Source: an uncultured Candidatus Berkelbacteria bacterium (GTDB lineage: Bacteria; Patescibacteriota; UBA1384; XYA2-FULL-43-10; CAINNR01). Taken from it: 54,863 nt of DNA. Positions 7,736 to 50,183 of this stretch are shown here, in pieces. Location of the stretch: contig CAINNR010000028.1 in the NCBI GenBank assembly GCA_903851235.1, positions 1 through 54,863 of the forward strand, given 5' to 3'. The notes beneath the pieces were generated by a model. That model was given only the letters and a program-made list of their open reading frames with translations, had not been told where the DNA came from and searched no databases. Within the stretch, counting starts at the first letter, position 1. Every line of letters starts with the position of its first letter. Position numbers and translations under genes: made by a program.

Positions 7736-8827
7736 TTAGCGGAAATCGGCGGTATAATAATTTCCGGCAATGCCAATGCCGAAGGTGTTAAAATCGCTCT
7801 CAAGCATAATTGTATTGTGTGGCGGGCTGTTTTTCCAGCCGTTAAATGCTCCGTTTGGACCGGATGAGCCCGTGTAAATTATTTCGCCAGAACAGGTTGT
7901 ACCAACGACAGCGCAACGATTCCAAGGGAGGGATCTGTTTTCTCCAGTGTGACTGAAAATACCAGTTGATGACATCCAGTTTGAATGATTAGCCGCGGCC
8001 CTGCTGATCAGCGGGTCAAGAGATAATTTTGTCAAACCGTTACTTTGGCGATAATTGTTTATTAAATCTGAAAGTTCGATCACCGCCTGACTGTAATTTG
8101 TCGTTGTCGCGCCGCCGCCAGAATCACCACCGGATGGGATGCCACCAGTTGAGCCCATTGAGCCGGTAACTATTTTTTCTAAGTTCAAGTTAACGGTTGT
8201 TTGTTTTTGGCTGATAATGCTAACATTTGTCTTCGCCGCCGATTTATAACCGCTAGCACTAACCGACAGATTATAAATTCCGGCGGCAATACGGAAGGTG
8301 TAATTGCCGGTGACATCGGCTTGAGTGCTGGCAGCGGTATTTTTATCAACCGATAAAGTTAAATTGACGGCAACCTTACAACTAGTACCGGCGCAACTGA
8401 TTTTCCCAAGCAAATCACCTTTTAGCGCCTCCTCGGCTTTTTGCTGTTTATCCGCCAGATACTTAGCGTAGAGTTCATCGAGAGTGGAATTCGCTTCGCC
8501 AATTAAATTATTTGCTAGCGAATAATCTTTGGCCGAGTAAATCGCTTGGTAAATTTTATCTGATTTCTCTTGGACTGCCGTCACATCCATACCGAGTGTT
8601 TGATAAGCAGTTTTTCTCTTCTCCAACTCCTCAAAGGCCGATACCGATCTAAGCGACCGTTCTTGCAAAAGAGCATTTTTTTCAGATTGCCGGTGGATAC
8701 TTATAACTATCAAAACGGTAGTCAAGGAAATTGCGAATAGAAAACCATAAACTATTACTCTAAATAGATTATGCCGAGTCCATTTTTTAATTTTAACGAA
8801 AGTATCTTTGATTCCTTGTCCCCTCAT
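7736..8827 (-). CDS. Membrane-anchored secreted protein with a coiled coil, a carboxypeptidase-regulatory-like beta-sandwich and a C-terminal CAP/SCP (PR-1-like) domain.
   Basis: N-terminal TM (FRVIVYGFLFAISLTTVLIVI). A GNYTFRIAAGIYNLSVSASGYK beta-sandwich signature. C-terminal NNYRQSNGLTKLSLDPLISRAAANHSNWM...FSHTG is typical of the CAP domain. Confidence 0.6.
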   Translation of the reverse strand: MRGQGIKDTFVKIKKWTRHNLFRVIVYGFLFAISLTTVLIVISIHRQSEKNALLQERSLRSVSAFEELEKRKTAYQTLGMDVTAVQEKSDKIYQAIYSAKDYSLANNLIGEANSTLDELYAKYLADKQQKAEEALKGDLLGKISCAGTSCKVAVNLTLSVDKNTAASTQADVTGNYTFRIAAGIYNLSVSASGYKSAAKTNVSIISQKQTTVNLNLEKIVTGSMGSTGGIPSGGDSGGGATTTNYSQAVIELSDLINNYRQSNGLTKLSLDPLISRAAANHSNWMSSTGIFSHTGENRSLPWNRCAVVGTTCSGEIIYTGSSGPNGAFNGWKNSPPHNTIMLESDFNTFGIGIAGNYYTADFR

Positions 8828-10932: not shown

Positions 10933-12204
10933 TTATTCGTATCTAAGGGCGTCAATCGGATTCAAGTTTGCCGCCCTGGCGGCGGGATAGATACCGAAGA
11001 TAATTCCAATAGCGGCGGAGATGCCAACGGCCAAACCGATCGCCGAGTTAGTTAAAACAGCGGCGAAGCCGACAAAATGACCGGCGATTGCGCCCAGCGC
11101 CCAGCCCAAGACGATTCCCAAAAGTCCGCCGACCAAAGTTAGAAGCAGTGCTTCGATTAAAAATTGAACTAAAATGTCAGAGGTTTTGGCGCCGACGGCT
11201 TTGCGCAGACCGATTTCACGCGTTCGTTCGGTGACGGAAACTAACATAATATTCATTATTCCGATTCCGCCAACCAAAAGTGAAATTGCGGCGATTCCAG
11301 AGAGAAGCGCGGTTAAGATCCCGGTGATACTCCCAACGGTCGAAAGCAAATCAGCCGAAGTTGAAACCGAAAAATCGGCCAATTTTTTTTCGGAAATTTT
11401 GTGGTTGGCCATCAGCGTGTTTTCAATTTCGGTTTTTACAGCGTCGACTGAATTTTGGTCTTTGGCATCAAGCGAAAAGTCGCTGAATTTTGTTGTTCCA
11501 AGCGAATCCATTGCCGAAGTGTAGGGGACAAAGGCGCTGGTGTTGGAATTGGAAAAACTGTTTTCAGCAACGGAATTGTAAACACCAACAATTTGGTAGT
11601 TGTCATTGCCGATTTGCAAAGTTTTACCAATTGGATTGTCTTGAGCGAAAAGGCTGGTTTTTAAGTCGGCACCCAAGATTGCAACTTTGTTGTGACTCGA
11701 AACATCGGCATCGGAAAGATTTTTTCCTTGACCGATCGATAATTTTCTCACCCCGATTAAACTGATTGTCGTGCCGGTGACGGAGAACCGCTGACTGGCA
11801 TTATAAATTCCCGAGCCGGAAACTATGCCGGCGACGTTAGAAGCGTCGGGAACGTTCTTCTTGCTAAGTAAAGAATTGTAATCATCGACAGTCAAAGTTG
11901 AAGTTCCGCCGCCAATTCCGCCACCACCACCACCACCGAAACCGCTTCTCTGTCCCGAGGTCGATGAACTTCCTGAAGTTTGGCTGCTGGCATTTGCCAA
12001 TTCCGCGCCGGGTGAAACGATTATTCTTGTCGGCCCCAAACTGTCAATTTGACCGGTGATATAACTTTTCGCGCCGTTGCCGAGCGACATTAAAGCGATG
12101 ACAGAGCCGATTCCGATTACGATTCCCAAAATTGTCAAAAAGCTACGGCCTTTGTTGGCAAAAATCGCTTTTAATGATTGTTTACCAATAACATAGAATT
12201 TCAT
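10933..12204 (-). CDS. ABC transporter permease, MacB/FtsX family, with a Gly-rich periplasmic insert.
   Basis: N-terminal TM plus a large periplasmic domain and three C-terminal TM helices (the FtsX fold). A 4-nt overlap with the upstream ATPase gene. Confidence 0.7.
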   Translation of the reverse strand: MKFYVIGKQSLKAIFANKGRSFLTILGIVIGIGSVIALMSLGNGAKSYITGQIDSLGPTRIIVSPGAELANASSQTSGSSSTSGQRSGFGGGGGGGIGGGTSTLTVDDYNSLLSKKNVPDASNVAGIVSGSGIYNASQRFSVTGTTISLIGVRKLSIGQGKNLSDADVSSHNKVAILGADLKTSLFAQDNPIGKTLQIGNDNYQIVGVYNSVAENSFSNSNTSAFVPYTSAMDSLGTTKFSDFSLDAKDQNSVDAVKTEIENTLMANHKISEKKLADFSVSTSADLLSTVGSITGILTALLSGIAAISLLVGGIGIMNIMLVSVTERTREIGLRKAVGAKTSDILVQFLIEALLLTLVGGLLGIVLGWALGAIAGHFVGFAAVLTNSAIGLAVGISAAIGIIFGIYPAARAANLNPIDALRYE

Positions 12205-12959
12205 TTATTCTCCTTTGCTCTGATTGGAGTCGAAGTTGTGCTTGATTTATCACTGACGATTTTTCCATCCTCCAACTCAATAACTCGCTTGGCGTATTTA
12301 GCGACGCTGGGTTCATGAGTTATAACGATGACTGTTGCGCCATCATCATTTATCTGTTGGAAAAGTTGCATGATTTCTCGCGACTTTTTGGAATCCAAAT
12401 TGCCGGTTGGCTCATCAGCCAAAATGATTGACGGGTCATTTATTAGTGCTCGGGCGACGGCGACGCGCTGAATTTGCCCACCTGAAAGTTGATTGCTTTT
12501 GTGATTTATCCGATCTGCCAAACCGACGCGTTCGATAATTTCCTTAGCTTTGCCGGTAGCATCCTTTTGTTTGCCGTAAATTGATGGTAGTATCACATTG
12601 TCCAAAACTGAAGTCCGTGGTAGTAAATTAAACTGCTGGAAAACAAAACCGATCTCCCGGTTGCGAATTTCCGCTTGGCGATTTTTATTTAATTTACTGA
12701 CATTTTCTCCGGCCAGAAAATATTTGCCGGAAGTCGGAACATCCAGAAGCCCCAAAATATGCATCAGCGTTGATTTGCCCGAGCCAGAAGGTCCCATAAT
12801 TGCAACAAACTCATTTTTTTTAATTATCAGATCAATATCGCAAACAGCAACCGTGTCCTCGTCGCCGGTTTTGTAAACTTTGCGGATTTTTTCCAACCGG
12901 ATTACATCATCTTCTTGATTCAAATTATTCCTTTCATCCAATTGATTATTCTTTGACAA
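12201..12959 (-). CDS. ABC transporter ATP-binding protein (MacB/LolD-like).
   Basis: Walker A GPSGSGKST, signature LSGGQIQRVAVARAL, Walker B ILADEPTGNLD. Confidence 0.85.
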   Translation of the reverse strand: MSKNNQLDERNNLNQEDDVIRLEKIRKVYKTGDEDTVAVCDIDLIIKKNEFVAIMGPSGSGKSTLMHILGLLDVPTSGKYFLAGENVSKLNKNRQAEIRNREIGFVFQQFNLLPRTSVLDNVILPSIYGKQKDATGKAKEIIERVGLADRINHKSNQLSGGQIQRVAVARALINDPSIILADEPTGNLDSKKSREIMQLFQQINDDGATVIVITHEPSVAKYAKRVIELEDGKIVSDKSSTTSTPIRAKENK

Positions 12960-13047
12960 ATTAATTATAGCAGTTTTAGACTTGGTGTTGTAGAGTGAAC
13001 AAAAACCCGAAGAAACTTCGGGTTTTTGCCTGGATTATATAATAGTA

Positions 13048-13344
13048 TCAATTATCGCCTTTGTCTCCGCAGCCGCAGGACTTGCCGTCTTCGCCTTTGT
13101 GTATCATTTGGTGCAAAGTATCGGCATCTTTTTCTGACACCATTTTGACGATCTTGTCCAATTTTTCTTTTGCTTCGGTTTCATCAAAACCACTTTCCTT
13201 CAACGACCACTTGATCTTCATCATACCGAGCGTCAACTTCATCACACCCCAAAGCATTTTGTCATCAATCTGATCCTTCTTGATGCCGACTTTTCCCAAC
13301 TCATCTGCGACCATCTCCAGCATTTTTTCATTTTTCATCATCAT
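13048..13344 (-). CDS. Hypothetical small protein with C-terminal CGCG cysteines.
   Basis: ORF only. Lys/Glu-rich, no recognisable domain. Confidence 0.3.
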   Translation of the reverse strand: MMMKNEKMLEMVADELGKVGIKKDQIDDKMLWGVMKLTLGMMKIKWSLKESGFDETEAKEKLDKIVKMVSEKDADTLHQMIHKGEDGKSCGCGDKGDN

Positions 13345-13411
13345 TTTGTTCCTTTCATTTAATTATTTCTCTAATTAGAGATTATTCCTGGCAGCTGAGA
13401 AAAAGCTTAGA

Positions 13412-15052
13412 TTACTTTGATGTCGATGGTTCGTCGTGACCCATATCGGCTTTTTTAGGCAGAAAAAATGTCAAGAGAAAACCGAGTCCGGTGAAGAGCG
13501 CGGCGTAAATCAGCGCTAATCGATTGGCGTCGGTTGTCGCCTTGTGACTAACAGTGATAATTTCGTTGGCAACATTTGCTGGCAGTTTGGTCGAAATTTG
13601 GGCGCCGCCGCCGAATTCGACGTTGGAGGTTTGGCTCGTGACCGCTGAAGTTATTTGCGGTTTTAATTGATTGGGAATTGCTTGACTTGAGGAGATTCCG
13701 GAATTTAGATTTGTCGCCAGTGCGGTTAAGAGCGCAGCGCCGACGACTGCCGAACCGAGCGATGAGCCGATCTGCCGGAAGGTATTGTTAACTCCTGAGG
13801 CTTCGCCAGCCTCTTCAACCGAAACGGCGGAAAGTGTCAGGTTTGAAAGTGTTGACATTGAAAGTCCGATGCCGGCGCCGTAAATTATCATGCCGAAAAT
13901 GAAGTTGTGAGTGCTGGCATCAATCTGCAAATTGCTTCGGATAATAATCATCCCGACTGTTGAGAACAAAAGTCCGGCTTGAATCAAGCGCTTCGGCCCG
14001 ACTTTTCGGCTGAGAACGGCGGCCGAAAGCGGCGCAACAATTAAAGATGTCAACGATGTCGGCAGAAACGCCAAACCGGTGTGGAAGGCATCTAGCCCGC
14101 GGACGGATTCAAAAAAGATTGGCAGAGCGAAGATCATACCGGTTTGACCGAGGGCCAAAAGTGCGGTAACCGCGACGCCGGAGGTAAATTGGTTGTTTCT
14201 GAATAACTTCATTGAAACCAGTGGTGTCATCCCGCGCTTGTCCATCCGCAACTCCCAGGCGACGAAAAGAATTATAATAATCAAACCGATAATTAGTGCC
14301 GGCGTAACGATAGAGATACCGCCGAGATCAAGTTTATGGCCGAAAAAACTGAAGATGTCTTTGGCTTTGTACCAGCCATAACTTGAGGATTCAATAATGC
14401 CAAAAACCAGCGCCAACAGTCCGATCGACGAAAGAATGACGCCGAAAATATCCAAAGTCGATTTCTCCTTTTCATCGCGTCGCTCCTTTATTATCACCGA
14501 GCCGATTATCAAAATTGCGGCGACGAAAATGTTAATTCGAAACCCCCAACGCCAATTAAAATGTGTGGTTAAAAATCCGCCGAGGATCGGTCCGATCGCC
14601 GCCGCCGCCGCCGCGGTTCCGCCCCAAACGCCCATAGCAATTGCTCGGTCGCGTCCACGATAAGTCGAAATCAGAAGCGACATTGTTGATGGCATCATCA
14701 AAGCCGCGCCGATGCCTTCAATTATCGATTCGCCGGCGATCATTGTGCCAACATTTTTGCTAATTGAAGCGATAAAAGATCCGAGAGCGAAAATTGCCGC
14801 GCCAACGATAAACATCCGTTTGCGGCCCCAGAGATCACCCAACCGTCCACCGGTAATTGTCAGCGCCGCCAATGTTAGGGCGTAAGCGGTAATTACCCAT
14901 TGGATGCTTTGAATATCGGTCTGGAGATCGCGGATGACATAAGCCAGCGCGACATTTAAGAGTGTGGTATCAATAATTATTATCATTAAACCGAGGGCTA
15001 AAACGAAAACCGGCGCCCACTTTCGAAAAAAACTCCAAAATTTTTTCAACAT
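13412..15052 (-). CDS. MFS transporter, DHA2 (EmrB/QacA-like, 14-TM) drug:H+ antiporter family.
   Basis: Motif GRLGDLWGRKRMF (MFS motif A). About 14 hydrophobic segments over 546 aa. Confidence 0.75.
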   Translation of the reverse strand: MLKKFWSFFRKWAPVFVLALGLMIIIIDTTLLNVALAYVIRDLQTDIQSIQWVITAYALTLAALTITGGRLGDLWGRKRMFIVGAAIFALGSFIASISKNVGTMIAGESIIEGIGAALMMPSTMSLLISTYRGRDRAIAMGVWGGTAAAAAAIGPILGGFLTTHFNWRWGFRINIFVAAILIIGSVIIKERRDEKEKSTLDIFGVILSSIGLLALVFGIIESSSYGWYKAKDIFSFFGHKLDLGGISIVTPALIIGLIIIILFVAWELRMDKRGMTPLVSMKLFRNNQFTSGVAVTALLALGQTGMIFALPIFFESVRGLDAFHTGLAFLPTSLTSLIVAPLSAAVLSRKVGPKRLIQAGLLFSTVGMIIIRSNLQIDASTHNFIFGMIIYGAGIGLSMSTLSNLTLSAVSVEEAGEASGVNNTFRQIGSSLGSAVVGAALLTALATNLNSGISSSQAIPNQLKPQITSAVTSQTSNVEFGGGAQISTKLPANVANEIITVSHKATTDANRLALIYAALFTGLGFLLTFFLPKKADMGHDEPSTSK

Positions 15053-15154
15053 TGCTCCTTTTTGTTTTTAGTTAGGCTAAATTATTTTACCATGGATGGG
15101 AAAATAATTATAGACTTGTGTTGCAACTTTGGAAAATCTGTTAAAATAGAGAAA

Positions 15155-16030
15155 ATGGCGAAAAACACGGTGATTGAAGTCAAAAATTTGAAGAAACATT
15201 TTTCCGCCGTCAAAGCGGTCGATGGGATCTCTTTTTCAATTGAAAAGGGCGAAATTTTCGGTTTTTTAGGTCCGAACGGCGCCGGAAAGACGACAACAAT
15301 CCGAATGCTGATGGATTTTATTCGGCCGACAAGCGGTGAAATTACAATTGCCGGCCTCGACTCTCAAGCCAACAGTGTCGAACTCAAGGAAAAGATCGGC
15401 TATCTTTCGGACACCGCTAGGTTTTACAACCACTGGAATGTAAAAAATCATTTGGATTTTCAGCAAAGTTTACGCGGCAAATCAAAAAATCTGGCCGAAT
15501 TAATCAAACTTTTCGGTTTAACCAGCAAACAGAAGTTTGCCAATTTATCCTCTGGCAACAAACGAAAACTATCAATCATTCTGGCGCTGATGAACAGTCC
15601 GGAAATTCTAATCCTCGACGAGCCGACGTCGTCGCTCGACCCGATTTTGCAAAACGCCTTTCTTTCGTATATCGACAATTTTGCCAAAGGTGGAGGCACG
15701 GTCTTTATGTCGTCTCACAATTTGGCCGAGGTTGAAAAGATTTGTAACCGAGTTGGAATTATTAAGGGCGGTAAAATGGTTGCCGTTGAACGAATCTCCG
15801 AGATGAAATTGATGAAAATTTACGACGTTAGTTTTCACTCCGCCGGCGCCGACCCGAAAATTTTCGCCGGCAACAATGTCGAAATTGTCAATCACATCGA
15901 TGGTCTTATTATGCTGAAAGTCAAAGGTGATATCAATCCAATTGTTGAAAAGTTGGCGAAAATCAAAGTCCACGACTTGGAAATTACTCATGCCAGTTTG
16001 GAGGATATCTTTTTGGAATACTATAACTAA
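15155..16030 (+). CDS. ABC transporter ATP-binding protein (ABC-2 exporter type).
   Basis: Walker A GPNGAGKTT, signature LSSGNKRKLSIILAL, Walker B ILILDEPTSSLD. The start is taken at MAKNTVIEV (the upstream part of the ORF has no RBS). Confidence 0.8.
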   Translation: MAKNTVIEVKNLKKHFSAVKAVDGISFSIEKGEIFGFLGPNGAGKTTTIRMLMDFIRPTSGEITIAGLDSQANSVELKEKIGYLSDTARFYNHWNVKNHLDFQQSLRGKSKNLAELIKLFGLTSKQKFANLSSGNKRKLSIILALMNSPEILILDEPTSSLDPILQNAFLSYIDNFAKGGGTVFMSSHNLAEVEKICNRVGIIKGGKMVAVERISEMKLMKIYDVSFHSAGADPKIFAGNNVEIVNHIDGLIMLKVKGDINPIVEKLAKIKVHDLEITHASLEDIFLEYYN

Positions 16031-18502: not shown

Positions 18503-19210
18503 TTAACTGGCAATACGGATTACCAAATAGATCAATCCGATGCCGGCGATTGTCATAATTGATGTCCAAAGCGTCGGGTGCCGGTGGTGACTCTCAGGAA
18601 TTAACTCGGCGGCGCCGATATAGAGGAATAGTCCGGTGAAAATCGCCAAAATTATTCCGAGAGATTTCTCGCTGACGGAAAAAAATAGCGTTGAAACAAC
18701 ACCGAATGCCGGCGCCAAAGCATCGGCAAATAACCACTTTAAGGCGGTTTTGCGACTGCCGTCATCTTTTAATATCATATTAGCTGTGTTGATACCATCA
18801 GAAAAATCATGAGCCAATACCGCCGCGGCGACAATCCAACCGACAGCCGGCGAAACTTTGAACGCCAAACCGATTCCAAGACCGTCAAGAAAGCTATGGA
18901 TTATCAAAGTTGTGGCGCCGAGTTTGCTTGAATGATCGGGATTTTCGCATTTCTCGTCACCATGTGGGTGGATTGAAAAAAAGCGATCAAAAATCAAATA
19001 AGCTATAAAACCAACTGCAATAAAAATAGCGGTTTTTTTGATGTCAGCGGTGAGACTGGACGCTTCGGGCAGAAGATCGAATAAAGCGACGCCCAAAACC
19101 GCGCCGGCGGAGAAACCCAAAATCAGGTGAAGTTTATCAGAAAATTTTATTGCAAAAAGTCCCCCGAGAATTGTGCTGACAATCGTTGCCAGAATAATTA
19201 AATAAATCAT
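18503..19210 (-). CDS. ZIP family divalent metal transporter (ZupT-like).
   Basis: Eight TM segments. His-rich loop HPHGDEKCENPDHS. AHDFSDG corresponds to the HNFPEG signature. Confidence 0.65.
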   Translation of the reverse strand: MIYLIILATIVSTILGGLFAIKFSDKLHLILGFSAGAVLGVALFDLLPEASSLTADIKKTAIFIAVGFIAYLIFDRFFSIHPHGDEKCENPDHSSKLGATTLIIHSFLDGLGIGLAFKVSPAVGWIVAAAVLAHDFSDGINTANMILKDDGSRKTALKWLFADALAPAFGVVSTLFFSVSEKSLGIILAIFTGLFLYIGAAELIPESHHRHPTLWTSIMTIAGIGLIYLVIRIAS

Positions 19211-19260
19211 ATGTTAATTATTGCACAGTCGGCAGAAGAGTCAACCTTTTTATTGTAATA

Positions 19261-19332
19261 ATACGACCAGGGGGTATAATGTGAAGAACGGGGGGTATGG
19301 CTGTTAATAAGTTTTTAGAAACTTATTAACAG
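19261..19332. promoter_or_regulatory. Candidate operator/promoter region between the divergent ZIP and CsoR-like genes: two G-tract boxes, a consensus TATAAT and a perfect 14-4-14 palindrome.
   Basis: ATACGACCAGGGGGTAT (19261-19277) overlaps TATAAT (19275-19280). ACGGGGGGTATGG lies at 19288-19300. CTGTTAATAAGTTT-TTAG-AAACTTATTAACAG lies at 19301-19332. Confidence 0.5.
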
Positions 19333-19356
19333 AATTTAAAATTAATATTTAAAAAA

Positions 19357-19587
19357 ATGGAGATAAATAAAATCCAAAATCGACTGAAGCGAATTGAGGG
19401 CCAGATTCGCGGGGTCGAAAATATGGTTTCGCTACTTCGCTCAAGCGATGAAATTATTATCCAACTTTCAGCAATCCGCTCGGCGGTGAATTCGCTTTTA
19501 TTAGAAGTTATCGACCAGGAACTGGAATCCGCCGATAAAGATCGACTAATGGAACTTAAAAAAACGATAAAAAGATTATTAAAATAG
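19357..19587 (+). CDS. CsoR/RcnR/FrmR-family (DUF156) transcriptional repressor that lacks the canonical Cys/His metal-ligand residues.
   Basis: LKRIEGQIRGVENMV ... IIIQLSAIRSAVNSLLLEVI matches the family helix-bundle signature. The protein contains no Cys or His at all. Confidence 0.65.
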   Translation: MEINKIQNRLKRIEGQIRGVENMVSLLRSSDEIIIQLSAIRSAVNSLLLEVIDQELESADKDRLMELKKTIKRLLK

Positions 19588-19620: not shown

Positions 19621-20226
19621 TTGAAAGGGGTGAGAGACTTGACAAGTCAGTTTGTCAGAATCGTTTCAGAACGGATTCATTCTCAGGTCTGTTTTTCGAT
19701 GACCGGTGGCGCTTGGCACGAAGGGGTGGAAGCAGCCAAGCAAGGGGTTTCACCTGCCGAAAATCCATACGAAAATCCGCCGTCGGAGTTTGATCATGAA
19801 CTTAGTAACAGCATGTCAACTGCCGCCCAATATTGGGATATCGGTCGGCGACGATTGGAATGGATCGACCGCGATATGTTCGGCGCAATCAAGTTGTTTC
19901 GCAATCACATTCCCGCCGACTGGCCCGAAGGTGTTGGGAAAATCTCAGCAAATTTCGACTTTACCAATCTCTCCATAATCGCGACGAACTGCGTTCCGGA
20001 AATGACTGACATGTTGTTGAGCGATCAGGCGCTTAAGATTTGGATTGGCCTTTGGGATAAAGCATTCAAGAATTTTGACGAATATCGCTTCTTCAATCTG
20101 CCGCTTCGGCTGATGAGAGCCATCGCCGATTATCGCAAACAACCGAATCGAAGAATTCTGCTTCAGTTCGAAAGATTGACCGAAAGGCCGTTTCTTTCTC
20201 AACTCCTTGACCCACCAGCTTGTTAA
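19621..20226 (+). CDS. Hypothetical protein (TTG start at 19621; possible ATG start at MTGGAWHEG).
   Basis: ORF only. Confidence 0.3.
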   Translation: MKGVRDLTSQFVRIVSERIHSQVCFSMTGGAWHEGVEAAKQGVSPAENPYENPPSEFDHELSNSMSTAAQYWDIGRRRLEWIDRDMFGAIKLFRNHIPADWPEGVGKISANFDFTNLSIIATNCVPEMTDMLLSDQALKIWIGLWDKAFKNFDEYRFFNLPLRLMRAIADYRKQPNRRILLQFERLTERPFLSQLLDPPAC

Positions 20227-20283
20227 AAGGCTGGTTTTTTTATCCAAATTTTGCTAATTTGAACATATGAAACAAATTGAAAA

Positions 20284-20538
20284 ATGAATCTCATCCAACA
20301 TAAAACATTGACGCTAAAAAAATGGTTTTCTCTGTCGTTGGCCGAGCAAATGGCAAATATCGGCAGTGAAGTTGAGAGAACGATTATCTGGAAAAGGAAA
20401 AACGATCCAGAGTATTCCCGTTTGGCATTTGAGCGGGCGCTGGAATTAGCCGATCTGACCAAACTCGATCCGGAAAATCATCGCCGGCTTGGCGAGCTTT
20501 GTCGAATGAGGGAAATTTTGGTTGATTGGTTTTTTTGA
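20284..20538 (+). CDS. Hypothetical small protein.
   Basis: ORF only; no recognised motif. Confidence 0.3.
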   Translation: MNLIQHKTLTLKKWFSLSLAEQMANIGSEVERTIIWKRKNDPEYSRLAFERALELADLTKLDPENHRRLGELCRMREILVDWFF

Positions 20539-20724: not shown

Positions 20725-20922
20725 ATGGTCAAAGGCAGTGATTTGGTTGTTGACAGTGAAAAATGTATCGGATGCGGGGCGTGTATATCGTCGTTCAAAG
20801 AATTATTTCACTATGACAAAGTTGGAAAATCGGAAGTTATAAAATCCGGCAAATGTGAAGATTGTGAAATCGACGTAGTGATTGGTATTTGTCCACAGGG
20901 AGCAATCAGCCATAAAAAATAA
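20725..20922 (+). CDS. Small single-cluster ferredoxin ([4Fe-4S]/[3Fe-4S] type).
   Basis: CIGCGAC ... CP cysteine pattern in a 65-aa protein. GGAGAA RBS. Confidence 0.7.
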   Translation: MVKGSDLVVDSEKCIGCGACISSFKELFHYDKVGKSEVIKSGKCEDCEIDVVIGICPQGAISHKK

Positions 20923-21032
20923 TTATGTCAGACCTATAAATTATCTTCCGATAGCTGACTCTATGAGCAAATTGAACTAAAGTACAAATAATTTGTAGTT
21001 TCGTTAAAAAATGCTACTTTTGTAGGAGAGTA

Positions 21033-21431
21033 ATGAAGGAGGGGACGAACAGCTTGATGATTCTATATTTCAGCTGGTGGTATGGTTATTTGCCGCGCCG
21101 GTTGTTTTTGGCGTTTAAGGCTTCGGTTATCACTCTGCTTGATTTATTTTCAGTTAAAATATTATTCAAAACCCTGTTTTCTCCCTGGAAACGCGACTTG
21201 ATTTCGACCGAAGGACTATCAATTCAAGAAAAAATCCAAATTTGGACTTTGAATCTGGCCTCCCGTTTCATCGGTTTTTTGGTCAAAACTTTTGTATTAA
21301 TTACTTTTGTCGTTGTTTTTGCTGTTGCAATAATCGTTTTTGCCGCCTTATTTTGCCTCTGGATCGCTTTCCCGTTGGCAATTATCGCTTTGATTATTCT
21401 CGGACTGGCTAATCTTTCAGGGAGTGTCTAA
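21033..21431 (+). CDS. Small integral membrane protein that overlaps the start of the Clp-like ATPase gene.
   Basis: Hydrophobic segments. An 8-nt overlap with the next gene. Confidence 0.4.
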   Translation: MKEGTNSLMILYFSWWYGYLPRRLFLAFKASVITLLDLFSVKILFKTLFSPWKRDLISTEGLSIQEKIQIWTLNLASRFIGFLVKTFVLITFVVVFAVAIIVFAALFCLWIAFPLAIIALIILGLANLSGSV

Positions 21432-23949
21432 TATGAATCCAAAGCTGAAAATAAATTTTGTTGGCAGTCGAATCAAAAAATTGGTTAATATCAACCGATT
21501 ATTTTCCGGTTTCTTCGGCAGAATTATATCACTTATCTTCTGGTTTTTAGGTTTGATAACGTTAGCTCTCTGGGTTTCTTGGCTGTTTGGCTCCGGTAAT
21601 TACAGCCAGTATTTTGGTCTTGATCAAATCCTTTTGGCGATTTTTCTCCTGTTTCTATCAATCAGAAGTTTTCTCCGCTTTTTTGTTCAACAACCGGAGA
21701 TTTTAACGCCGAAAAAACTTAAAGAATTGGCTACTTCCGGCACGGAGGTTAACTTCGTTGAGGCTTTTTCCGTTCTACTTGCCAGAGCGCTTCTGGCGCT
21801 CGGCAGTGATTTGGAGGAAATCAACATTAGCGATGTACTGTTGGCGCTAGTTAAAGCAGCTGATGCCGATTTTATTTTTTATCGCATCGGACAAACCAAA
21901 GATGAACTTATTTCGCTTTTGGAAAAACAGCCTTCGCCTTCGGCAGTTCGTTTTTTGACTTTGGCAGAGCAAACGCTGGAGATTTCTATTCTCGAAAATC
22001 ACGATCAGATCGAAGTCGGTGATATGTTGGTTGCGTTGGCTGACGCCGATTTGGTTTTTGCCTCCTACCTGTCCAAATTAAATATTTCCAGTAAGGATCT
22101 CGCCAATATCGTCTATTGGAAAACTGAAATCAGCAAAAACTTTGTCGAGGGACACATCAGTTTTGATCCGGATCACTTACATTTGACTGGTGGAATCGGC
22201 AAAGATTGGGCATATGGTTATACGCCGGATTTGGACAAATATTCATTTGATATTACATCTGGGCTCGAAAAACAGGGTTTGGGCTTGGAATTGATTGGTC
22301 ATGACAAAGAAATCGGTTTTTTGGAGCAAGCGTTAAATCGTAGTGTTGGCGCCAATGCGATTTTAGTCGGCGAACCGGGAGTTGGCAAAAAAACCGCGCT
22401 TTTGGGTTTTGCGAAGAAAATCGATGAAGGGCTGTCGCTGCCAAATTTGGCTCACAAACATGTCATTGAATTAAATGTTGATCTCTTAATCTCCGGACTT
22501 TCCGGCCCGGGTGAATTTACCGAGCGAATCACTCGAGTTTTTTCTCAAGCCGCCAATGCCGGTAATATTATCATCTTCATCGATGGAATCGAGAAAATTC
22601 TGACATCGGGCGAAACTGGTCAGGTTGATGCGACTTCGGTTTTAGTGCCGTACTTGTCATACCCGGATATCAGTTTTGTCGGCACAACCGACATTTCAAG
22701 CTACAGTAATTTGATTGCTGGCAACACCGCTTTAGCTCAACGATTTGAAAAAATTGAGATTTCCGAGCCGACCGACGAAGAGATGGTTAGAATTTTGGAA
22801 GACACAGCGCCGCAAATCGAAGGACACTTCGGCATTTTGGTTACTTACCAGGCGATTTCCGAAGTTATTCGATTGGCGAAAAAATATATTTTGGATCAGC
22901 CAAATCCGGAGAAATCAATTTCAATTTTAGAAAATGCCGCTAATACCTTAGCAAACAGTAAAAGTAAAATATTAAATATTGATGTTGTCGATCAATATGT
23001 TTCCGAGCGGACAAATATTCCGGTCAAAGATGCAACCGGTCGGGAGAAGGAAGTCTTGATAAATCTGGAACAGCAACTTAGAAAACGAATTATTGGTCAA
23101 TCAAAAGCGGTTGATGCCGTTTCTGGCGCGCTTCGCCGTTCGCGAGCCGGCGTTTCCGAGAGTTCAAAGCCGATCGGCAGTTTTCTCTTTTTGGGGCCGA
23201 CCGGTGTTGGCAAAACTGAAACCGCTAAAGCCTTGGCCTCAGTTTATTTTGGCTCGGACGAGGCGATGCTTCGTTTCGATATGAGCGAATATCAGAATAA
23301 GGAGGATGTCTATCGCCTGATCGGTTCGCCAACCGGCAGCGGCCAGAAAATCGAAGGCGAATTAATCGCTAAAATTCGCAATAACCCGTTTTCTCTCATC
23401 CTCTTCGACGAAATCGAAAAAGCCAGTCAGGATATACTAAATCTTTTTCTTCAAATTTTAGATGAGGGATTCATCACCAGTTCAAGTGGCAAAAAAGCTT
23501 ATTTCAAAAATTCAATTATTATAGCAACTTCAAATGCCGGCGCCAATTTAATCCGAAAGCTGACGGCTGAAAATACCGAATATAGTCTGGCGAAAAAACA
23601 GGTTGTCGATTTTGTCCAGAATCAGGGAATTTTCCGTCCGGAATTTATTAACCGTTTTACCGAAGTCGTTTACTATTCGCCATTATCAAAAACTGAAATT
23701 ACCGAAGTCGCGAAAATGATGATTCGAAAATTGGCCAAAGAGATCGCTGAAACCAAAGGAGTAATTCTTAAGGTTGAACTTTCGGCACTGGCAAAACTTT
23801 CTGAGTTGGGCTACGATCCGGAAATGGGAGCCAGACCGATGGCGCGAGTTATTGAGGAGCAAATCGAAAACTCTTTGGCGGAGAAAATATTGAAAGGGGA
23901 AGCGGTTAAGGGCTCGGAGGTGATATTTAAATTGGCGGACATAAAATAA
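21424..23949 (+). CDS. Membrane-anchored Clp/Hsp100-family ATPase (ClpC/ClpB-like, two AAA+ modules) with N-terminal TM helices.
   Basis: N-terminal TM (IISLIFWFLGLITLALWVSWLFG). Clp_N-like repeats. D1 Walker A GEPGVGKKTA. D2 Walker A GPTGVGKTETAKALA. Sensor-2 region GARPMARVIEE. Confidence 0.75.
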   Translation: MSNMNPKLKINFVGSRIKKLVNINRLFSGFFGRIISLIFWFLGLITLALWVSWLFGSGNYSQYFGLDQILLAIFLLFLSIRSFLRFFVQQPEILTPKKLKELATSGTEVNFVEAFSVLLARALLALGSDLEEINISDVLLALVKAADADFIFYRIGQTKDELISLLEKQPSPSAVRFLTLAEQTLEISILENHDQIEVGDMLVALADADLVFASYLSKLNISSKDLANIVYWKTEISKNFVEGHISFDPDHLHLTGGIGKDWAYGYTPDLDKYSFDITSGLEKQGLGLELIGHDKEIGFLEQALNRSVGANAILVGEPGVGKKTALLGFAKKIDEGLSLPNLAHKHVIELNVDLLISGLSGPGEFTERITRVFSQAANAGNIIIFIDGIEKILTSGETGQVDATSVLVPYLSYPDISFVGTTDISSYSNLIAGNTALAQRFEKIEISEPTDEEMVRILEDTAPQIEGHFGILVTYQAISEVIRLAKKYILDQPNPEKSISILENAANTLANSKSKILNIDVVDQYVSERTNIPVKDATGREKEVLINLEQQLRKRIIGQSKAVDAVSGALRRSRAGVSESSKPIGSFLFLGPTGVGKTETAKALASVYFGSDEAMLRFDMSEYQNKEDVYRLIGSPTGSGQKIEGELIAKIRNNPFSLILFDEIEKASQDILNLFLQILDEGFITSSSGKKAYFKNSIIIATSNAGANLIRKLTAENTEYSLAKKQVVDFVQNQGIFRPEFINRFTEVVYYSPLSKTEITEVAKMMIRKLAKEIAETKGVILKVELSALAKLSELGYDPEMGARPMARVIEEQIENSLAEKILKGEAVKGSEVIFKLADIK

Positions 23950-26259: not shown

Positions 26260-26829
26260 TTGTATGAAAATAAGATTATGAATGAAACTGAAGTTAAAAT
26301 ATTGCCGGCAGTGACGATTTTGGCGATTATTGTTTTTGGAATTTTTTCTTTTGTTTTGGCAAACGCCTCGGAAATCACGCCGGATAATATTGTTAAACTG
26401 GTTAATGAAGAGCGAACTGCCAACGGATTAAATCCACTAAAAATGAATCCAAAGTTGCAAAGCGCGGCAATTTTCAAATCCAACGATATGATCTATCGGA
26501 ATTATTTTGATCACTACGCTTTCGGTCAAACGCCATGGATGTTTATTATTCGCGCTGGTTATGATTATTCTGTTGCCGGTGAAAATTTGGCCAAAGGTTA
26601 CAGCACTTCGGAGGGAGTTGTTAATGCTTGGATTAATTCGCCCAGCCATCGAGCAAATATTCTAAACCCTGATTTTCAAGATATCGGTGTTGGAGTTGTT
26701 AGAGGAGCATTTACCGCTGACGGTCAAACTGTCGAGACGACAATGACAACGGAGCTATTTGCGACGCCGAAATCGAAAATAGCCGTATTTTTTGAGAGAA
26801 TTTCAAACACCATATTTAGTATTTTTTAA
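26260..26829 (+). CDS. Secreted CAP/SCP (PR-1-like) domain protein.
   Basis: Signal/TM ILPAVTILAIIVFGIFSFVLA. CAP motifs VNEERTANGLNPLKMNPKLQSAA and HYAFGQTPW...GENLAKGY...WINSPSHRANIL. Confidence 0.7.
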   Translation: MYENKIMNETEVKILPAVTILAIIVFGIFSFVLANASEITPDNIVKLVNEERTANGLNPLKMNPKLQSAAIFKSNDMIYRNYFDHYAFGQTPWMFIIRAGYDYSVAGENLAKGYSTSEGVVNAWINSPSHRANILNPDFQDIGVGVVRGAFTADGQTVETTMTTELFATPKSKIAVFFERISNTIFSIF

Positions 26830-49125: not shown

Positions 49126-49548
49126 ATGGAAAAACTAGAAACCCCAAAGCCAAAGAAGAGCTCAGTGCAGAGCAAGACAATTTTGGTGGTGGAGGACGAC
49201 GAAGACCTTAACAGAGCGATTGCCGATATGCTTCGCCGAGAAAATTTCCTATCCTTTGAAGCAAAAAACGGCAAAGAAGGGGTGGAGATTGCCCTGACAA
49301 AACACCCCGACCTTATTTTGCTTGATCTTCTGATGCCAGTAATGGGCGGTCTGACCGCTCTTAAAAATATTCGTGCCGATGCTTGGGGGAAAAAAGTCCC
49401 TGTCATCATTTTGACGAATTTCAATCAGGCCGATGATCGAATAACGACAGATTATGTGACCTATCAACCGGAAGAATATTTAGTCAAATCGGAGGTGAAG
49501 CTTCGTGACGTGATTAATAAAATCAAAGATATACTAAAAGTCCAATAA
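49126..49548 (+). CDS. Single-domain response regulator (CheY-like REC), copy 1.
   Basis: KTILVVEDDEDL, DLILLDLLMPVMGG (phospho-acceptor Asp), VIILTN and the K of EYLVKS. AAGGAGA RBS. Confidence 0.75.
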   Translation: MEKLETPKPKKSSVQSKTILVVEDDEDLNRAIADMLRRENFLSFEAKNGKEGVEIALTKHPDLILLDLLMPVMGGLTALKNIRADAWGKKVPVIILTNFNQADDRITTDYVTYQPEEYLVKSEVKLRDVINKIKDILKVQ

Positions 49549-49639
49549 TGACAGAAAAAAAAGCCCAAAATAATTGCCAGCAAGCAGAAGTGATAGTTAC
49601 GCAAAGTCAAAAAGTAATTTAGCTGGTTGAGGCCAAAAA

Positions 49640-49723
49640 AGATTATTGCCGCTTGATATCAGAATATGAAAAGCGGCTGGGTAAAGAAGTTGTTTTCTCA
49701 TTTAGAAGAGAGAAAGTAAATTA
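49640..49723 (+). pseudogene. Remnant of a duplicated 3 end of gene 48114..48905.
   Basis: 49640-49723 is about 85% identical to 48822-48905 (…SEYEKRLGKEVVFSFRREKVN* versus …SEYEKRLGKKVSFSLRREKVD*). It has no start codon or upstream gene body. Confidence 0.55.
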
Positions 49724-49745
49724 AACAATAAATTGGAGGAACACA

Positions 49746-50183
49746 ATGGGAACAGAAAAAACCTCAGTATCAGAGCAGAGCTCTCCAAGCGCCGTGCGGG
49801 TGGTACGGGATAAAACAATTCTGGTGGTGGAAGACGAGAAAGATCTCCGCAAAGCAATCACCGACGTCCTTCGTCACAATAATTTCCTGCCATTGGAAGC
49901 AAGTAACGGCGAAGAGGCCATAGAGGTGGCGTTGGCAAAACACCCCGATCTTATTTTGCTTGATCTTTTAATGCCGGTGATGGGCGGAATGGCGGCTTTG
50001 AAGAAAATCCGCGCCGATGTTTGGGGAACGAATGTTCCGGTTATTATACTGACCAACTTAAGTCCAGACAAAGAACAGTTGGTGAAAGATGTGGTGACAA
50101 ATAACCCGATGGAGTATTTAGTCAAATCAGACTGGAAACTTCACGATGTTATTAAAAAAATAAAAAAGGTACTAAAAAAATAA
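49746..50183 (+). CDS. Single-domain response regulator (CheY-like REC), copy 2, a tandem paralogue.
   Basis: About 60% aa identity to copy 1 with the same motif set. GGAGGAA RBS. Confidence 0.75.
   Translation: MGTEKTSVSEQSSPSAVRVVRDKTILVVEDEKDLRKAITDVLRHNNFLPLEASNGEEAIEVALAKHPDLILLDLLMPVMGGMAALKKIRADVWGTNVPVIILTNLSPDKEQLVKDVVTNNPMEYLVKSDWKLHDVIKKIKKVLKK

Follow-up and report, generated by a model that had tools for sequence, protein, structure and literature searches.

The locus holds a gene for a CsoR/RcnR-family regulator, a ZIP-family metal transporter gene on the opposite strand and an ORF on the 3′ side of the regulator (Table 1). Positions refer to the window, the whole stretch of 54,863 nucleotides (54.8 kb) that was analysed. 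The two divergent genes of the sequence-only reading were confirmed in the sequence, and the 146-bp spacer between them was located at 19211-19356. It carries predicted promoters for both genes, two G-tract boxes and a palindrome.

Table 1. Genes and predicted signals around the regulator (window positions)
Feature	Position	Strand	Details
ZIP-family metal transporter gene	18503..19210	-	235 aa; Pfam PF02535
Predicted ZIP promoter	19217..19244	-	TTGACT, 16-nt spacer, TG-extended AATAAT; promoter scan 10 of 12 with TG; outside box 1
Predicted sigma-70-type promoter of the regulator	19253..19280	+	−35 TTGTAA 19253-19258; 16-nt spacer; −10 TATAAT 19275-19280; promoter scan 10 of 12
Box 1, putative CsoR-type operator ATACGACCAGGGGGTAT (ATAC-N9-GTAT, G tract)	19261..19277		Fills the −35/−10 spacer and overlaps the −10
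Box 2, putative half-operator GGGGGTAT	19291..19298		Repeats the octamer of box 1, offset by exactly 21 bp downstream
Perfect 14-4-14 inverted repeat; putative stem-loop within the predicted 5′ leader of the regulator	19301..19332	+	Arms 19301-19314 and 19319-19332
Conserved motif TGTKRAWAA, second copy TGTTAATAA	19302..19310	+	Core of the left hairpin arm; TGT..A.AA invariant
CsoR/RcnR-family regulator gene	19357..19587	+	76 aa, without Cys and His; PF02583 (DUF156)
ORF 3′ of the regulator	19621..20226	+	201 aa from TTG at 19621; 195 aa in public records
Terminator-like hairpin (20214-20235) and T run	20214..20245	+	Likely end of the regulator transcription unit (candidate)

The 201-aa ORF is probably co-transcribed with the regulator. 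Searches found no homologues and no Pfam domain for it, only a faint, sub-threshold match related to CrpP. Genes for CopA, CopZ or HMA-type proteins were absent within 4 kb of the regulator in 12 related loci, the window included, and genes for sulfur detoxification, nickel efflux or formaldehyde detoxification were not found near the regulator. A P-type ATPase of the Cation_ATPase_N type is encoded at 88-2250 of the window. The cumulative GC skew has its minimum near 15 kb, where the gene strand also switches.

Regulator protein and its sensing positions

The regulator is a genuine member of the CsoR/RcnR fold family. It matches Pfam PF02583 with an E-value of 5.7e-17 and 62.3 bits (cut-off 22.8) over profile positions 3-72 of 78. 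The NCBIfam models RicR, RcnR and FrmR give 30-38 bits against cut-offs of 133-175. An AF2 model of the monomer has helices at residues 3-25, 30-58 and 61-75 (pLDDT 93.5), and the top 21 matches of a fold search in the PDB were all CsoR, InrS, CstR or FrmR structures, with TM values up to 0.89. Pfam HMM and predicted fold confirm the helix-bundle membership that had been read from the sequence. Proteins of this family are all-helical, with a three-helix protomer and a dimer-of-dimers tetramer as quaternary structure.

Close homologues (at least 52, with 62-100% identity) are present in Candidatus Berkelbacteria and Patescibacteria. Across 52 homologues, 23 protein columns are invariant, and so is the alpha1 motif N8-R-L-K-R-I-E-G-Q16..R18-G19. 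Purifying selection on the clade is strong: dN/dS values lie between 0.03 and 0.22, with saturated synonymous sites.

The protein had been described as free of Cys and His and hence of the canonical ligands. The 76 residues indeed include neither amino acid. Alignment to the solved structures of InrS, CsoR and CstR and to 6ahx places S30 at the position of the X cysteine, E55 at the Y histidine and A59 at the Z cysteine; the N-terminus, MEIN, has neither His nor Pro at the W position. In the 52 homologues, position 30 is occupied by S, A, T, P, N or I and never by Cys. As judged from these alignments, the W-X-Y-Z ligands are absent from the whole clade and their loss is no one-off mutation. 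A different frame or start that would restore ligand residues was not found: the frame is closed by a stop 10 codons ahead of the ATG, with no alternative start in the interval, and the gene is not overlapped by another ORF of 40 aa or more.

All characterised classes of the CsoR family retain the cysteine in the X-position (PMC8643695, PMC11672702). The class motifs are H-C-H-H or H-C-H-C for RcnR/InrS, P-C-H-x for FrmR and x-C-x-C for CstR (PMC8643695, PMC11672702, PMC5016687). The regulator carries none of them, nor the x-C-H-C motif of Cu(I)-sensing CsoR. These residues define sensor classes of PF02583, not the fold family. E55 and D31 are invariant among the 52 homologues and D60 nearly so. 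They are located at or beside the former ligand positions, and their conservation may indicate that some form of site has been kept.

Operator boxes and predicted leader hairpin

Operators of the family consist of G/C tracts flanked by T/A-rich inverted repeats, and two tetramers bind each operator (PMC5016687). Box 1 combines a G/C tract with a T/A-rich inverted repeat and lies in the regulator promoter. The sequence-only reading had proposed two operator-like boxes overlapping the TATAAT. Presence and operator type of the boxes stand, but the overlap applies to box 1 only. Box 1 is degenerate in its left half, and box 2, a half-site, lacks the ATAC arm, so the binding mode may differ from that of canonical CsoR. 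A 21-nt tandem unit (19256-19276 and 19277-19297) includes box 2.

When the window was scanned for the boxes, the octamer GGGGGTAT was found at two sites only, in box 1 and in box 2, and the G/C-rich form of ATAC-N9-GTAT in a single place, the spacer. Canonical csoR genes were represented by 80 loci, taken from among the matches listed in a family-alignment search of genome contigs, a listing of canonical CsoR loci with no Berkelbacteria among them. The same operator, ATAC-N9-GTAT, precedes 58 of these 80 genes within 260 nt upstream, with the consensus ATACCCTATGGGGGTAT. In their promoters the box is typically framed by TTGACAA and ATAAT, and another box often follows downstream.

The promoter of the window was aligned without gaps to 13 further distinct promoters, including those of relatives with a protein identity down to 40-49%. 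Invariant in all 14 are ATAC, GGTAT, the T/A/T..T of the −10, the GGGGGTAT octamer 21 nt later and TGT..A.AA; the register of box 2 is fixed at 21 bp in each of them. A search of metagenome contigs with the degenerate pattern GGGGGTATNNNTGTKRAWAA recovered the full architecture in 5 of 120 stretches among the matches listed. Across related loci, the boxes always accompany the regulator's own promoter, and no G/C-rich boxes were found there near ZIP, Fer4 or ClpB genes. Position and conservation support the G-tract boxes as real CsoR-type operators.

The perfect palindrome proposed for the spacer is present, with fully complementary 14-nt arms and a 4-nt loop. It folds at −14.8 kcal/mol, with z values of −3.9 to −6.0 versus shuffled sequences. 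The first copy of TGTKRAWAA, TGTGAAGAA, is located at 19280-19288. Rfam gave no match on the spacer. An intrinsic terminator was considered and rejected: the stem is poor in G-C pairs, AATTTAAAATT comes after it, and it does not appear in the terminator scan. The reading as a dispersed repeat was also rejected, with only the two arms matching in 54.8 kb.

Hairpins with z values of −4 to −7 occur in 9 of 13 leaders; they differ in loop size and arm length and have six or more distinct stem sequences. Since most relatives form a hairpin from other stems, the palindrome is not a generic repeat, a possibility that the sequence-only reading had raised against itself. The hairpin is absent from 5 of 16 leaders and thus not essential. 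By comparison of predicted folds, the palindrome represents the lineage-specific form of a hairpin that recurs in the predicted 5′ leaders of most relatives. It lies downstream of the predicted −10 and on that position belongs to the putative regulator transcript; it is no shared divergent operator.

Proposed autorepression and alternative readings

We favour a sensor-less CsoR-type autorepressor, which would act independently of a ligand or respond to an input outside the known inducers; the pairing with ZIP would be incidental. We put the probability of this reading at about 0.6. The protein would bind box 1, which fills the −35/−10 spacer of its own promoter, and also the second GGGGGTAT half-site, two helical turns downstream and over the putative transcript start. 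The bound protein would block RNA polymerase and repress its own gene and the co-transcribed ORF, up to the terminator-like hairpin. Cu(I), Ni/Co, persulfide and formaldehyde should all be unable to release it from the DNA, because each of them requires the cysteine in the X-position. The stem-loop in the leader of the mRNA would probably affect stability or expression. The strength of selection is more than a gene repressing only itself would suggest, so further targets are probable; the related DNA covered amounted to about 150 kb.

The acidic residues may instead form a non-thiol sensor. In such a pocket, D31/E32 from one subunit would join E55/D60 from its partner to take up a hard cation or respond to pH, and so release the protein. 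The conservation of E55, D31 and, nearly, D60 beside the former ligand positions suits this proposal, as do the strong purifying selection and a metal transporter as frequent neighbour. However, distant relatives with the same promoter architecture have lysine or arginine at position 55 and D31 is not conserved in them; the group with the common cis element thus has no conserved pocket. The AF2 model covers the monomer only. A sensor of this kind is conceivable but tentative.

A related and rather doubtful proposal starts from the neighbourhood. Regulators of the clade nearly always adjoin a conserved block of genes for a small membrane protein, a ferredoxin, an unknown protein and a ClpB-like ATPase. 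The small protein is tail-anchored and flanks the regulator in five relatives; a homologue search did not find it in the window. In one relative (L081), its divergent gene has a consensus-like TTGACA-N17-TATAAT clear of the box, as read by eye without a scan. The CPR clade might have swapped thiol sensing for another input, keeping the operator, the GGGGGTAT-N3-TGTGGAWAA element and the leader hairpin, and regulating the ClpB block. The input could be an inter-subunit acidic or salt-bridge site, a partner protein or control by the leader RNA, and the protein would be the local regulator of that block. If true, a metal-sensor scaffold would here serve a regulator of stress or proteostasis.

In the sequence-only reading, the protein was a repurposed regulator with control over the divergent ZIP importer, and hence over metal uptake, through the shared spacer and in response to a signal outside the known ones. 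The transporter itself is a member of the ZIP family (PF02535, E-value 2.1e-21, 76.9 bits, cut-off 35.1). It aligns over its whole length to the ZupT equivalog model, but with 67.5 bits against a cut-off of 252 it is no ZupT orthologue; of the ZupT-like importer first described, the family assignment remains. Its predicted promoter ends 7 nt before the ATG, which implies an mRNA of the leaderless type.

Arrangement and promoters argue both ways on control of ZIP. ZIP adjoins the regulator in 7 of 12 related loci, and the two promoters of the window point away from each other, with box 1 located 51-67 nt upstream of the ZIP ATG. A second promoter-like site on the minus strand (19285 to 19258) overlaps box 1. 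Yet the divergent arrangement is unique to the window among the 12 loci: ZIP is convergent in four (L081, L091, L092, L096), upstream and co-directional in two (L087, L217) and absent in five (L084, L095, L219, L222, L223). A promoter-like site of its own lies a few nucleotides from the ZIP ATG in four of five relatives, and boxes in none of the five. Three of these sites (L081, L091, L096) have the form TTGACT/TTGAAA-N17-TAnnnT without boxes, and the window keeps a ZIP promoter of the same type, outside box 1; the ZIP gene of L087 has a TG-extended TATAAT about 30 nt upstream.

The logic is also opposed. Inducers weaken DNA binding in the CsoR family (PMC5016687). On an importer, metal excess would then raise uptake, and the regulator has lost all its metal ligands. 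With divergence confined to the window, other arrangements or no ZIP elsewhere and box-free ZIP promoters, the pairing is not a conserved link. It looks accidental, probably the product of a local inversion within a syntenic block, and ZIP is probably not a conserved target of the regulator. Control of metal uptake through ZIP is thus improbable, and the original claim lacks support. A regulator divergent from a transporter in a single genome is no proof of a regulatory pair.

Sequence conservation of the left hairpin arm extends to cases without the right arm, and the left arm may therefore act as a site at the DNA level. Palindrome and TGTGGAWAA would then be bound by another protein, a dimeric regulator or DnaA. 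TGTGGATAA is the complement of the DnaA-box consensus TTATCCACA. A perfect TGTGGATAA occurs in 8 of the 14 aligned promoters (L091, L092, L095, L121, L161, L213 and L217 are named) and in L169 too, and L161 and L213 have a second, inverted TTATCCACA. Against such a site, the distance between half-site cores varies from overlapping to 12 nt, unsuited to a rigid dimer, and the version of the window, TTATTAACA, departs from the DnaA box at two positions. The window has 17 DnaA-box-like sites with one mismatch versus 13.2 expected, and they form no cluster. The motif is located downstream of the −10, inside the predicted transcript. Binding by another protein is thus quite improbable. A reading of TGTGGATAA as part of an oriC is likewise improbable in spite of the skew minimum and strand switch near 15 kb, as DnaA-box-like sites are neither enriched nor clustered and dnaA and dnaN are not located nearby.

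Decay of a copper-sensing csoR into a functionless relic after loss of the cop operon would agree with the complete loss of ligand residues and with the absence of CopA and CopZ within 4 kb in 12 loci, but is hardly credible for a gene with the dN/dS values and saturated dS given above, 23 invariant columns and a promoter and operator conserved down to 40% protein identity.

Autorepression by a sensor-less protein, the reading preferred here, would make the clade a natural case of the CsoR scaffold minus its chemistry. Conserved, strongly selected and devoid of ligands, yet with an operator, it would show what the scaffold does on its own: the clade may be a fixed autorepressor or carry a new allosteric input. 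Regulators are very scarce in CPR bacteria, so any that is retained is probably important for their reduced physiology. The clean cis element is directly testable, with an invariant pair of octamers 21 bp apart and a hairpin whose pairing is kept while the sequence changes.

Comparison with known CsoR-family systems

The nearest known system is the Cu(I)-sensing CsoR of the type found in B. subtilis, Geobacillus and S. lividans (SSN cluster 1, PMC8643695). Both share the Pfam family and the three-helix fold (TM 0.89 to 4m1p), the alpha1 motif RLKRIEGQxRG and the operator class ATAC-(G/C tract)-GTAT, located between −35 and −10 with a second site downstream. CsoR is longer (about 85-105 aa versus 76 aa) and has x-C-H-C ligands, where the regulator has S/E/A and no copA or copZ nearby. 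As second site, the regulator promoter has a half-box at 21 bp and canonical promoters a full box at 33-35 bp, and the left half of box 1 is degenerate, unlike that of canonical CsoR. The regulator adds the TGTGGAWAA motif and the leader hairpin; the motif occurs in 1 of 76 canonical promoters.

CstR, RcnR/InrS and FrmR have fold and family membership in common with the regulator. They keep the X cysteine together with Cys, His or Pro at W, Y or Z, of which the regulator has none. The ion-pair positions E14-R18′ and R28-D/E32, described for SpCstR (PMC8643695), are conserved in the regulator clade.

Loss of the X cysteine is more widespread. The residue is absent in about 45 of the best 150 PF02583 representatives, several of which are devoid of both Cys and His. 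Like the regulator, WP_036096739.1 from Listeria floridensis (P0116) and the metagenomic proteins P0084-P0086 and P0092, with 72-81 aa, are free of both. These relatives are 37-49% identical to the regulator, and other residues occupy their former ligand positions, Y carrying K or R. No box lies upstream of the Listeria gene, whose neighbours are LXG/DUF4176 genes. Searches of publications found none on these Cys/His-free PF02583 proteins and nothing relevant on CsoR proteins without ligands, on CsoR of CPR bacteria or on CsoR together with ClpB. P0084, P0085, P0086 and P0092 share the promoter architecture of the regulator, and P0084-P0086 also the Fer4/ClpB-like neighbourhood. The CsoR family, its fold and its operator class were already known; new is a CsoR-fold clade that has no ligands and has kept the operator.

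Ligand positions of the regulator and its homologues

HMM match, fold and operator type place the regulator in the CsoR/RcnR fold family. The AlphaFold model has three helices (pLDDT 93.5), and its best 21 fold matches in the PDB are all CsoR, InrS, CstR or FrmR. As the sequence-only reading had claimed, the 76-aa protein contains no Cys and no His. Alignment with the solved structures InrS, Geobacillus CsoR, pneumococcal CstR and 6ahx placed S30 at the X Cys, E55 at the Y His and A59 at the Z Cys. An alternative start or frame that restores ligands, named beforehand as grounds for rejection, does not exist: no start codon lies between the ATG and the in-frame stop 10 codons upstream, and overlapping ORFs of 40 aa or more are absent. 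The defining ligand motifs of the characterised sensor classes are absent, so the regulator is outside every one of them. Sensing of Cu(I), Ni/Co, persulfide and formaldehyde needs the X Cys, which excludes all of these as inducers (PMC8643695, PMC11672702, PMC5016687) and agrees with the earlier claim of no canonical Cu, Ni or formaldehyde binding.

Among 5.8 billion proteins, at least 52 full-length homologues with 62-100% identity were found. They have 76-77 aa, bar a few longer gene calls; the start of homologue P0021 (94 aa) was called too far upstream. Named sources are Candidatus Berkelbacteria or 'Patescibacteria group' bacteria. In the 52-homologue alignment, the X position (30) is S, A, T, P, N or I and never Cys; the alpha1 motif N8-RLKRIEGQ-x-RG19, D31 and E55 are invariant, A59 and D60 nearly so. 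In a profile search against 1.84 billion representatives, the clade formed three clusters at 50% identity (E <1e-30); the next E value after these was 2.6e-18. Ligand loss is not unique to the clade, since the X Cys is missing in ~45 of the best 150 representatives, several without any Cys or His. One Cys/His-free PF02583 protein (WP_036096739.1, 81 aa) is from the cultured Firmicute Listeria floridensis FSL S10-1187 (L221 4001-4246, AODF01000008.1). Its gene adjoins genes of the LXG, DUF4176 and DUF3958 families, and its upstream region lacks a CsoR box. L. floridensis offers a culturable host for the study of a sensor-less CsoR-fold protein. A literature search found no publication treating such ligand-free proteins; clusters 6-9 of the published superfamily network are uncharacterised (PMC8643695).

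The acidic residues E55, D31 and D60 suggest that something is retained at the old ligand site, and a new acidic sensing site would explain their conservation. In relatives that share the promoter, K or R takes the place of E55. The group therefore has no site in common, and a new acidic site appears doubtful.

The operator-like boxes in the predicted promoter

Both G-tract boxes proposed earlier are present in the spacer between regulator and ZIP gene; the proposed overlap with TATAAT applies to box 1, an ATAC-N9-GTAT site, but not to box 2, a downstream half-site. Beyond these two, the 54.8 kb contain no further copy of GGGGGTAT, and ATAC-N9-GTAT occurs at one other, AT-rich site in the window.

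Features of the window and small membrane protein genes of related loci
Feature	Position	Strand	Remarks
ZIP gene	18503-19210	-	235 aa; Pfam Zip E 2.1e-21
Spacer	19211-19356		146 bp between ZIP and regulator
Predicted ZIP promoter	19244->19217	-	extended -10 TG
Predicted regulator promoter			TTGTAA, 16-nt spacer, TATAAT; scores 10/12; box 1 inside -35/-10 spacer
Box 1, ATACGACCAGGGGGTAT	19261-19277		last bases overlap TATAAT 19275-19280
Box 2, second GGGGGTAT	19291-19298
Palindrome, 14-4-14	19301-19332
Regulator gene	19357-19587	+	76 aa; PF02583 E 5.7e-17, 62.3 bits vs threshold 22.8
ORF directly downstream of regulator	19621-20226	+
Terminator-like hairpin and T run	20214-20245
84-aa ORF	20284-20538	+	stops at T7 run
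Ferredoxin	20725-20922		downstream of regulator
132-aa protein			downstream of regulator, listed between ferredoxin and ClpB-like gene
ClpB-like gene	21424-23949		downstream of regulator
CAP family genes	7736-8827; 26260-26829	-; +
Vault-like ORF	38606-41551	-	981 aa; PF11978 E 3.1e-22
Ice-binding-like protein	43624-44517
Two receiver-domain genes	49126-50183		stand-alone
Small membrane protein genes	L081 3655-3813; L087 4389-4544; L084 4638-4793; L095 4341-4508; L096 3623-3802

The boxes were compared with 80 canonical csoR loci among the matches listed in a genome scan. In 58 of the 80, the 260 nt preceding the gene contain ATAC-N9-GTAT (consensus ATACCCTATGGGGGTAT). The usual layout is TTGACAA-box-ATAAT, with the box filling the -35/-10 spacer, and a second full box often follows 33-35 nt downstream. 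The window shares this layout, with some deviations.

Fourteen distinct promoters were aligned, 10 from the close clade and four from relatives at 40-49% protein identity (P0084, P0085, P0086, P0092). From ATAC onward the alignment is gapless. Invariant are ATAC, GGTAT, key -10 positions, a second GGGGGTAT at a fixed distance of 21 nt downstream of the first, and then TGT..A.AA. This conservation is not neutral, since synonymous sites are saturated. In comparison to the canonical operator, the left half of box 1 is degenerate, the G tract is often continuous on one strand, and the place of a second full box is taken by a half-box at a distance of two helical turns. TGTGRAWAA follows each GGGGGTAT; the motif is almost absent from canonical promoters, with 1 of 76 containing it. 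Judged by these motifs, the G-tract boxes are a predicted canonical-type CsoR operator in the regulator's own promoter. A tetramer would most likely bind box 1 and box 2 on one DNA face, and binding would repress this promoter and the co-transcribed gene. The favoured overall picture, with an estimated probability of about 0.6, is an autorepressor that either acts independently of a ligand or responds to a non-canonical input.

Gene neighbourhood and the ZIP transporter

Within the clade, and likewise in its distant relatives, the regulator stands at the 5' edge of a recurrent gene block, as first gene in the same direction or divergent. The block codes for a tail-anchored membrane protein (51-59 aa), a ferredoxin (Fer4_13/15, 63-73 aa), a protein without assigned function (112-238 aa), a ClpB-like ATPase (837-842 aa) and, in loci with enough sequence beyond it, a C39/C70 peptidase. 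The middle three are beside the regulator in the window (20725-23949), L081, L084, L091, L092, L095, L096, L219 and L222, where the protein without assigned function has 112-170 aa; the block is retained even in relatives whose regulators are 40-49% identical, and despite several local inversions. The small membrane protein, without a Pfam match, has a near-invariant C-terminal membrane segment MSIVAILAVAVGTIYGTILF and flanks the regulator in five relatives, downstream or divergent. It was not found in the window, where its place is occupied by an ORF with no homologue but itself among 5.8 billion proteins and a faint sub-threshold CrpP-related match. The terminator-like hairpin probably ends the regulator's transcription unit. 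The 84-aa ORF has homologues of 110-112 aa in L081 and L087, and the rest of its C-terminal part is readable in another frame within the following ~80 nt; the cause is either a frameshift in the gene or an assembly error at the homopolymer. Neither the ferredoxin nor the ClpB genes are preceded by a box, and the divergent gene of L081 has, by eye, a separate consensus-like promoter that does not overlap the box, so the association of regulator and block is shown as synteny only.

The divergent pair of regulator and ZIP claimed earlier exists, in the window only of 12 loci compared, itself included. ZIP is convergent in L081, L091, L096 and L092 (~650 bp between stop codons in L092), upstream and co-directional in L087 and L217, and absent from the neighbourhood in L084, L095, L219, L222 and L223. 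In convergence, the commonest arrangement, stop codons are 6-14 bp apart in L081 (4234-4241), L091 (4285-4294) and L096 (4231-4246). No terminator was seen by eye in these short gaps, and transcription from the regulator's promoter could continue antisense into ZIP. The boxes stay with the regulator's promoter in every arrangement. In the same three loci, a separate promoter-like sequence stands before ZIP (TTGACT or TTGAAA, N17, TAnnnT); it is free of a box, and 7-8 nt separate its end from the ATG. A promoter of this type is also present in the window, and box 1 is at about -45 to -61 relative to the predicted ZIP start. The short distance from -10 to ATG suggests leaderless-type ZIP mRNAs in these CPR bacteria; no Shine-Dalgarno sequence precedes ZIP in the window (19208-19244, -), L081, L091 or L096.

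The sequence-only reading had the regulator govern the divergent ZIP importer and thereby metal uptake. Effectors of the CsoR family weaken DNA binding (PMC5016687), so a metal-sensing version would induce the importer at high metal, the wrong logic. With the divergence in the window only and the relatives' ZIP promoters without a box, this control is unlikely. ZIP is probably not a conserved target of the regulator; we conclude that the divergent pair in this contig is the product of a putative local inversion; some incidental coupling may exist here.

Elsewhere in the window, the 981-aa ORF with a major vault protein shoulder domain and weak Vault_3 and Band_7 matches sits in a 4-kb stretch of 55% G+C (contig ~42%), for which rRNA was ruled out. 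This CPR bacterium seems to have a vault-protein-like gene whose composition is foreign. The cumulative GC skew minimum is at ~12000-16000 and nearly all genes switch from the - to the + strand at ~15,055; this region resembles a replication origin, but no dnaA, dnaN or DnaA-box cluster is in the window. Two CAP/cysteine-rich secretory protein family genes, an ice-binding-like protein and two receiver-domain genes are also encoded.

The putative leader hairpin and comparison with the CsoR family

The proposed 14-4-14 inverted repeat is perfect; following the -10, it is located in the predicted 5' leader (transcription start to ATG). A scan for generic-repeat copies found no other match of its arms in the window. 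Its stem-loop folds far better than shuffled sequence (z = -3.9 to -6.0). Most relatives have a strong hairpin 3' of box 2 (z -4 to -7 in 9 of 13 leaders folded), one further leader has a weaker one (z = -2.75), and L223, outside the 13, has an inverted repeat. None was found in L091, L092 or L217, nor in L095 and L222, whose leaders are short. Stems vary in sequence (e.g. CTGTTAATAAGTTT, CTGTGGAAAAGTC, CTTTGTGGAC, CCTTGTGGATAA, CTGTGGATAAGC), length (10-14 bp) and loop, and the distance between the conserved cores ranges from overlapping to 12 nt. The window arms TGTTAATAA/TTATTAACA differ from TGTGGATAA/TTATCCACA by two changes, each matched on both arms. Since pairing is kept while geometry varies, a folded single strand fits better than a rigid-dimer site. 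Rfam gave no match; a terminator was rejected, as no T run follows and the terminator scan did not list it.

The left arm is the second TGTGRAWAA copy, and its sequence is conserved also in relatives that lack the right arm. An additional role at the DNA level is therefore probable. That this role is to serve as a site for another protein is very unlikely. The motif is the complement of the DnaA box; this reading was not substantiated. DnaA-box-like sites show neither enrichment nor clustering in the window, whose own version has two mismatches.

The regulator as a decaying leftover can be dismissed, since pairwise dN/dS values of 0.03-0.22 among homologues indicate strong purifying selection.

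Degenerate non-sensing members of regulator families are unsurprising in themselves. The regulator offers a clear and testable example of a metal-sensor scaffold that has been retained in the absence of its sensor, and the organisms concerned have very few regulators. At the DNA end it is like CsoR, with an operator type known here from sequence; at the sensing end it is unlike any known CsoR-family member.
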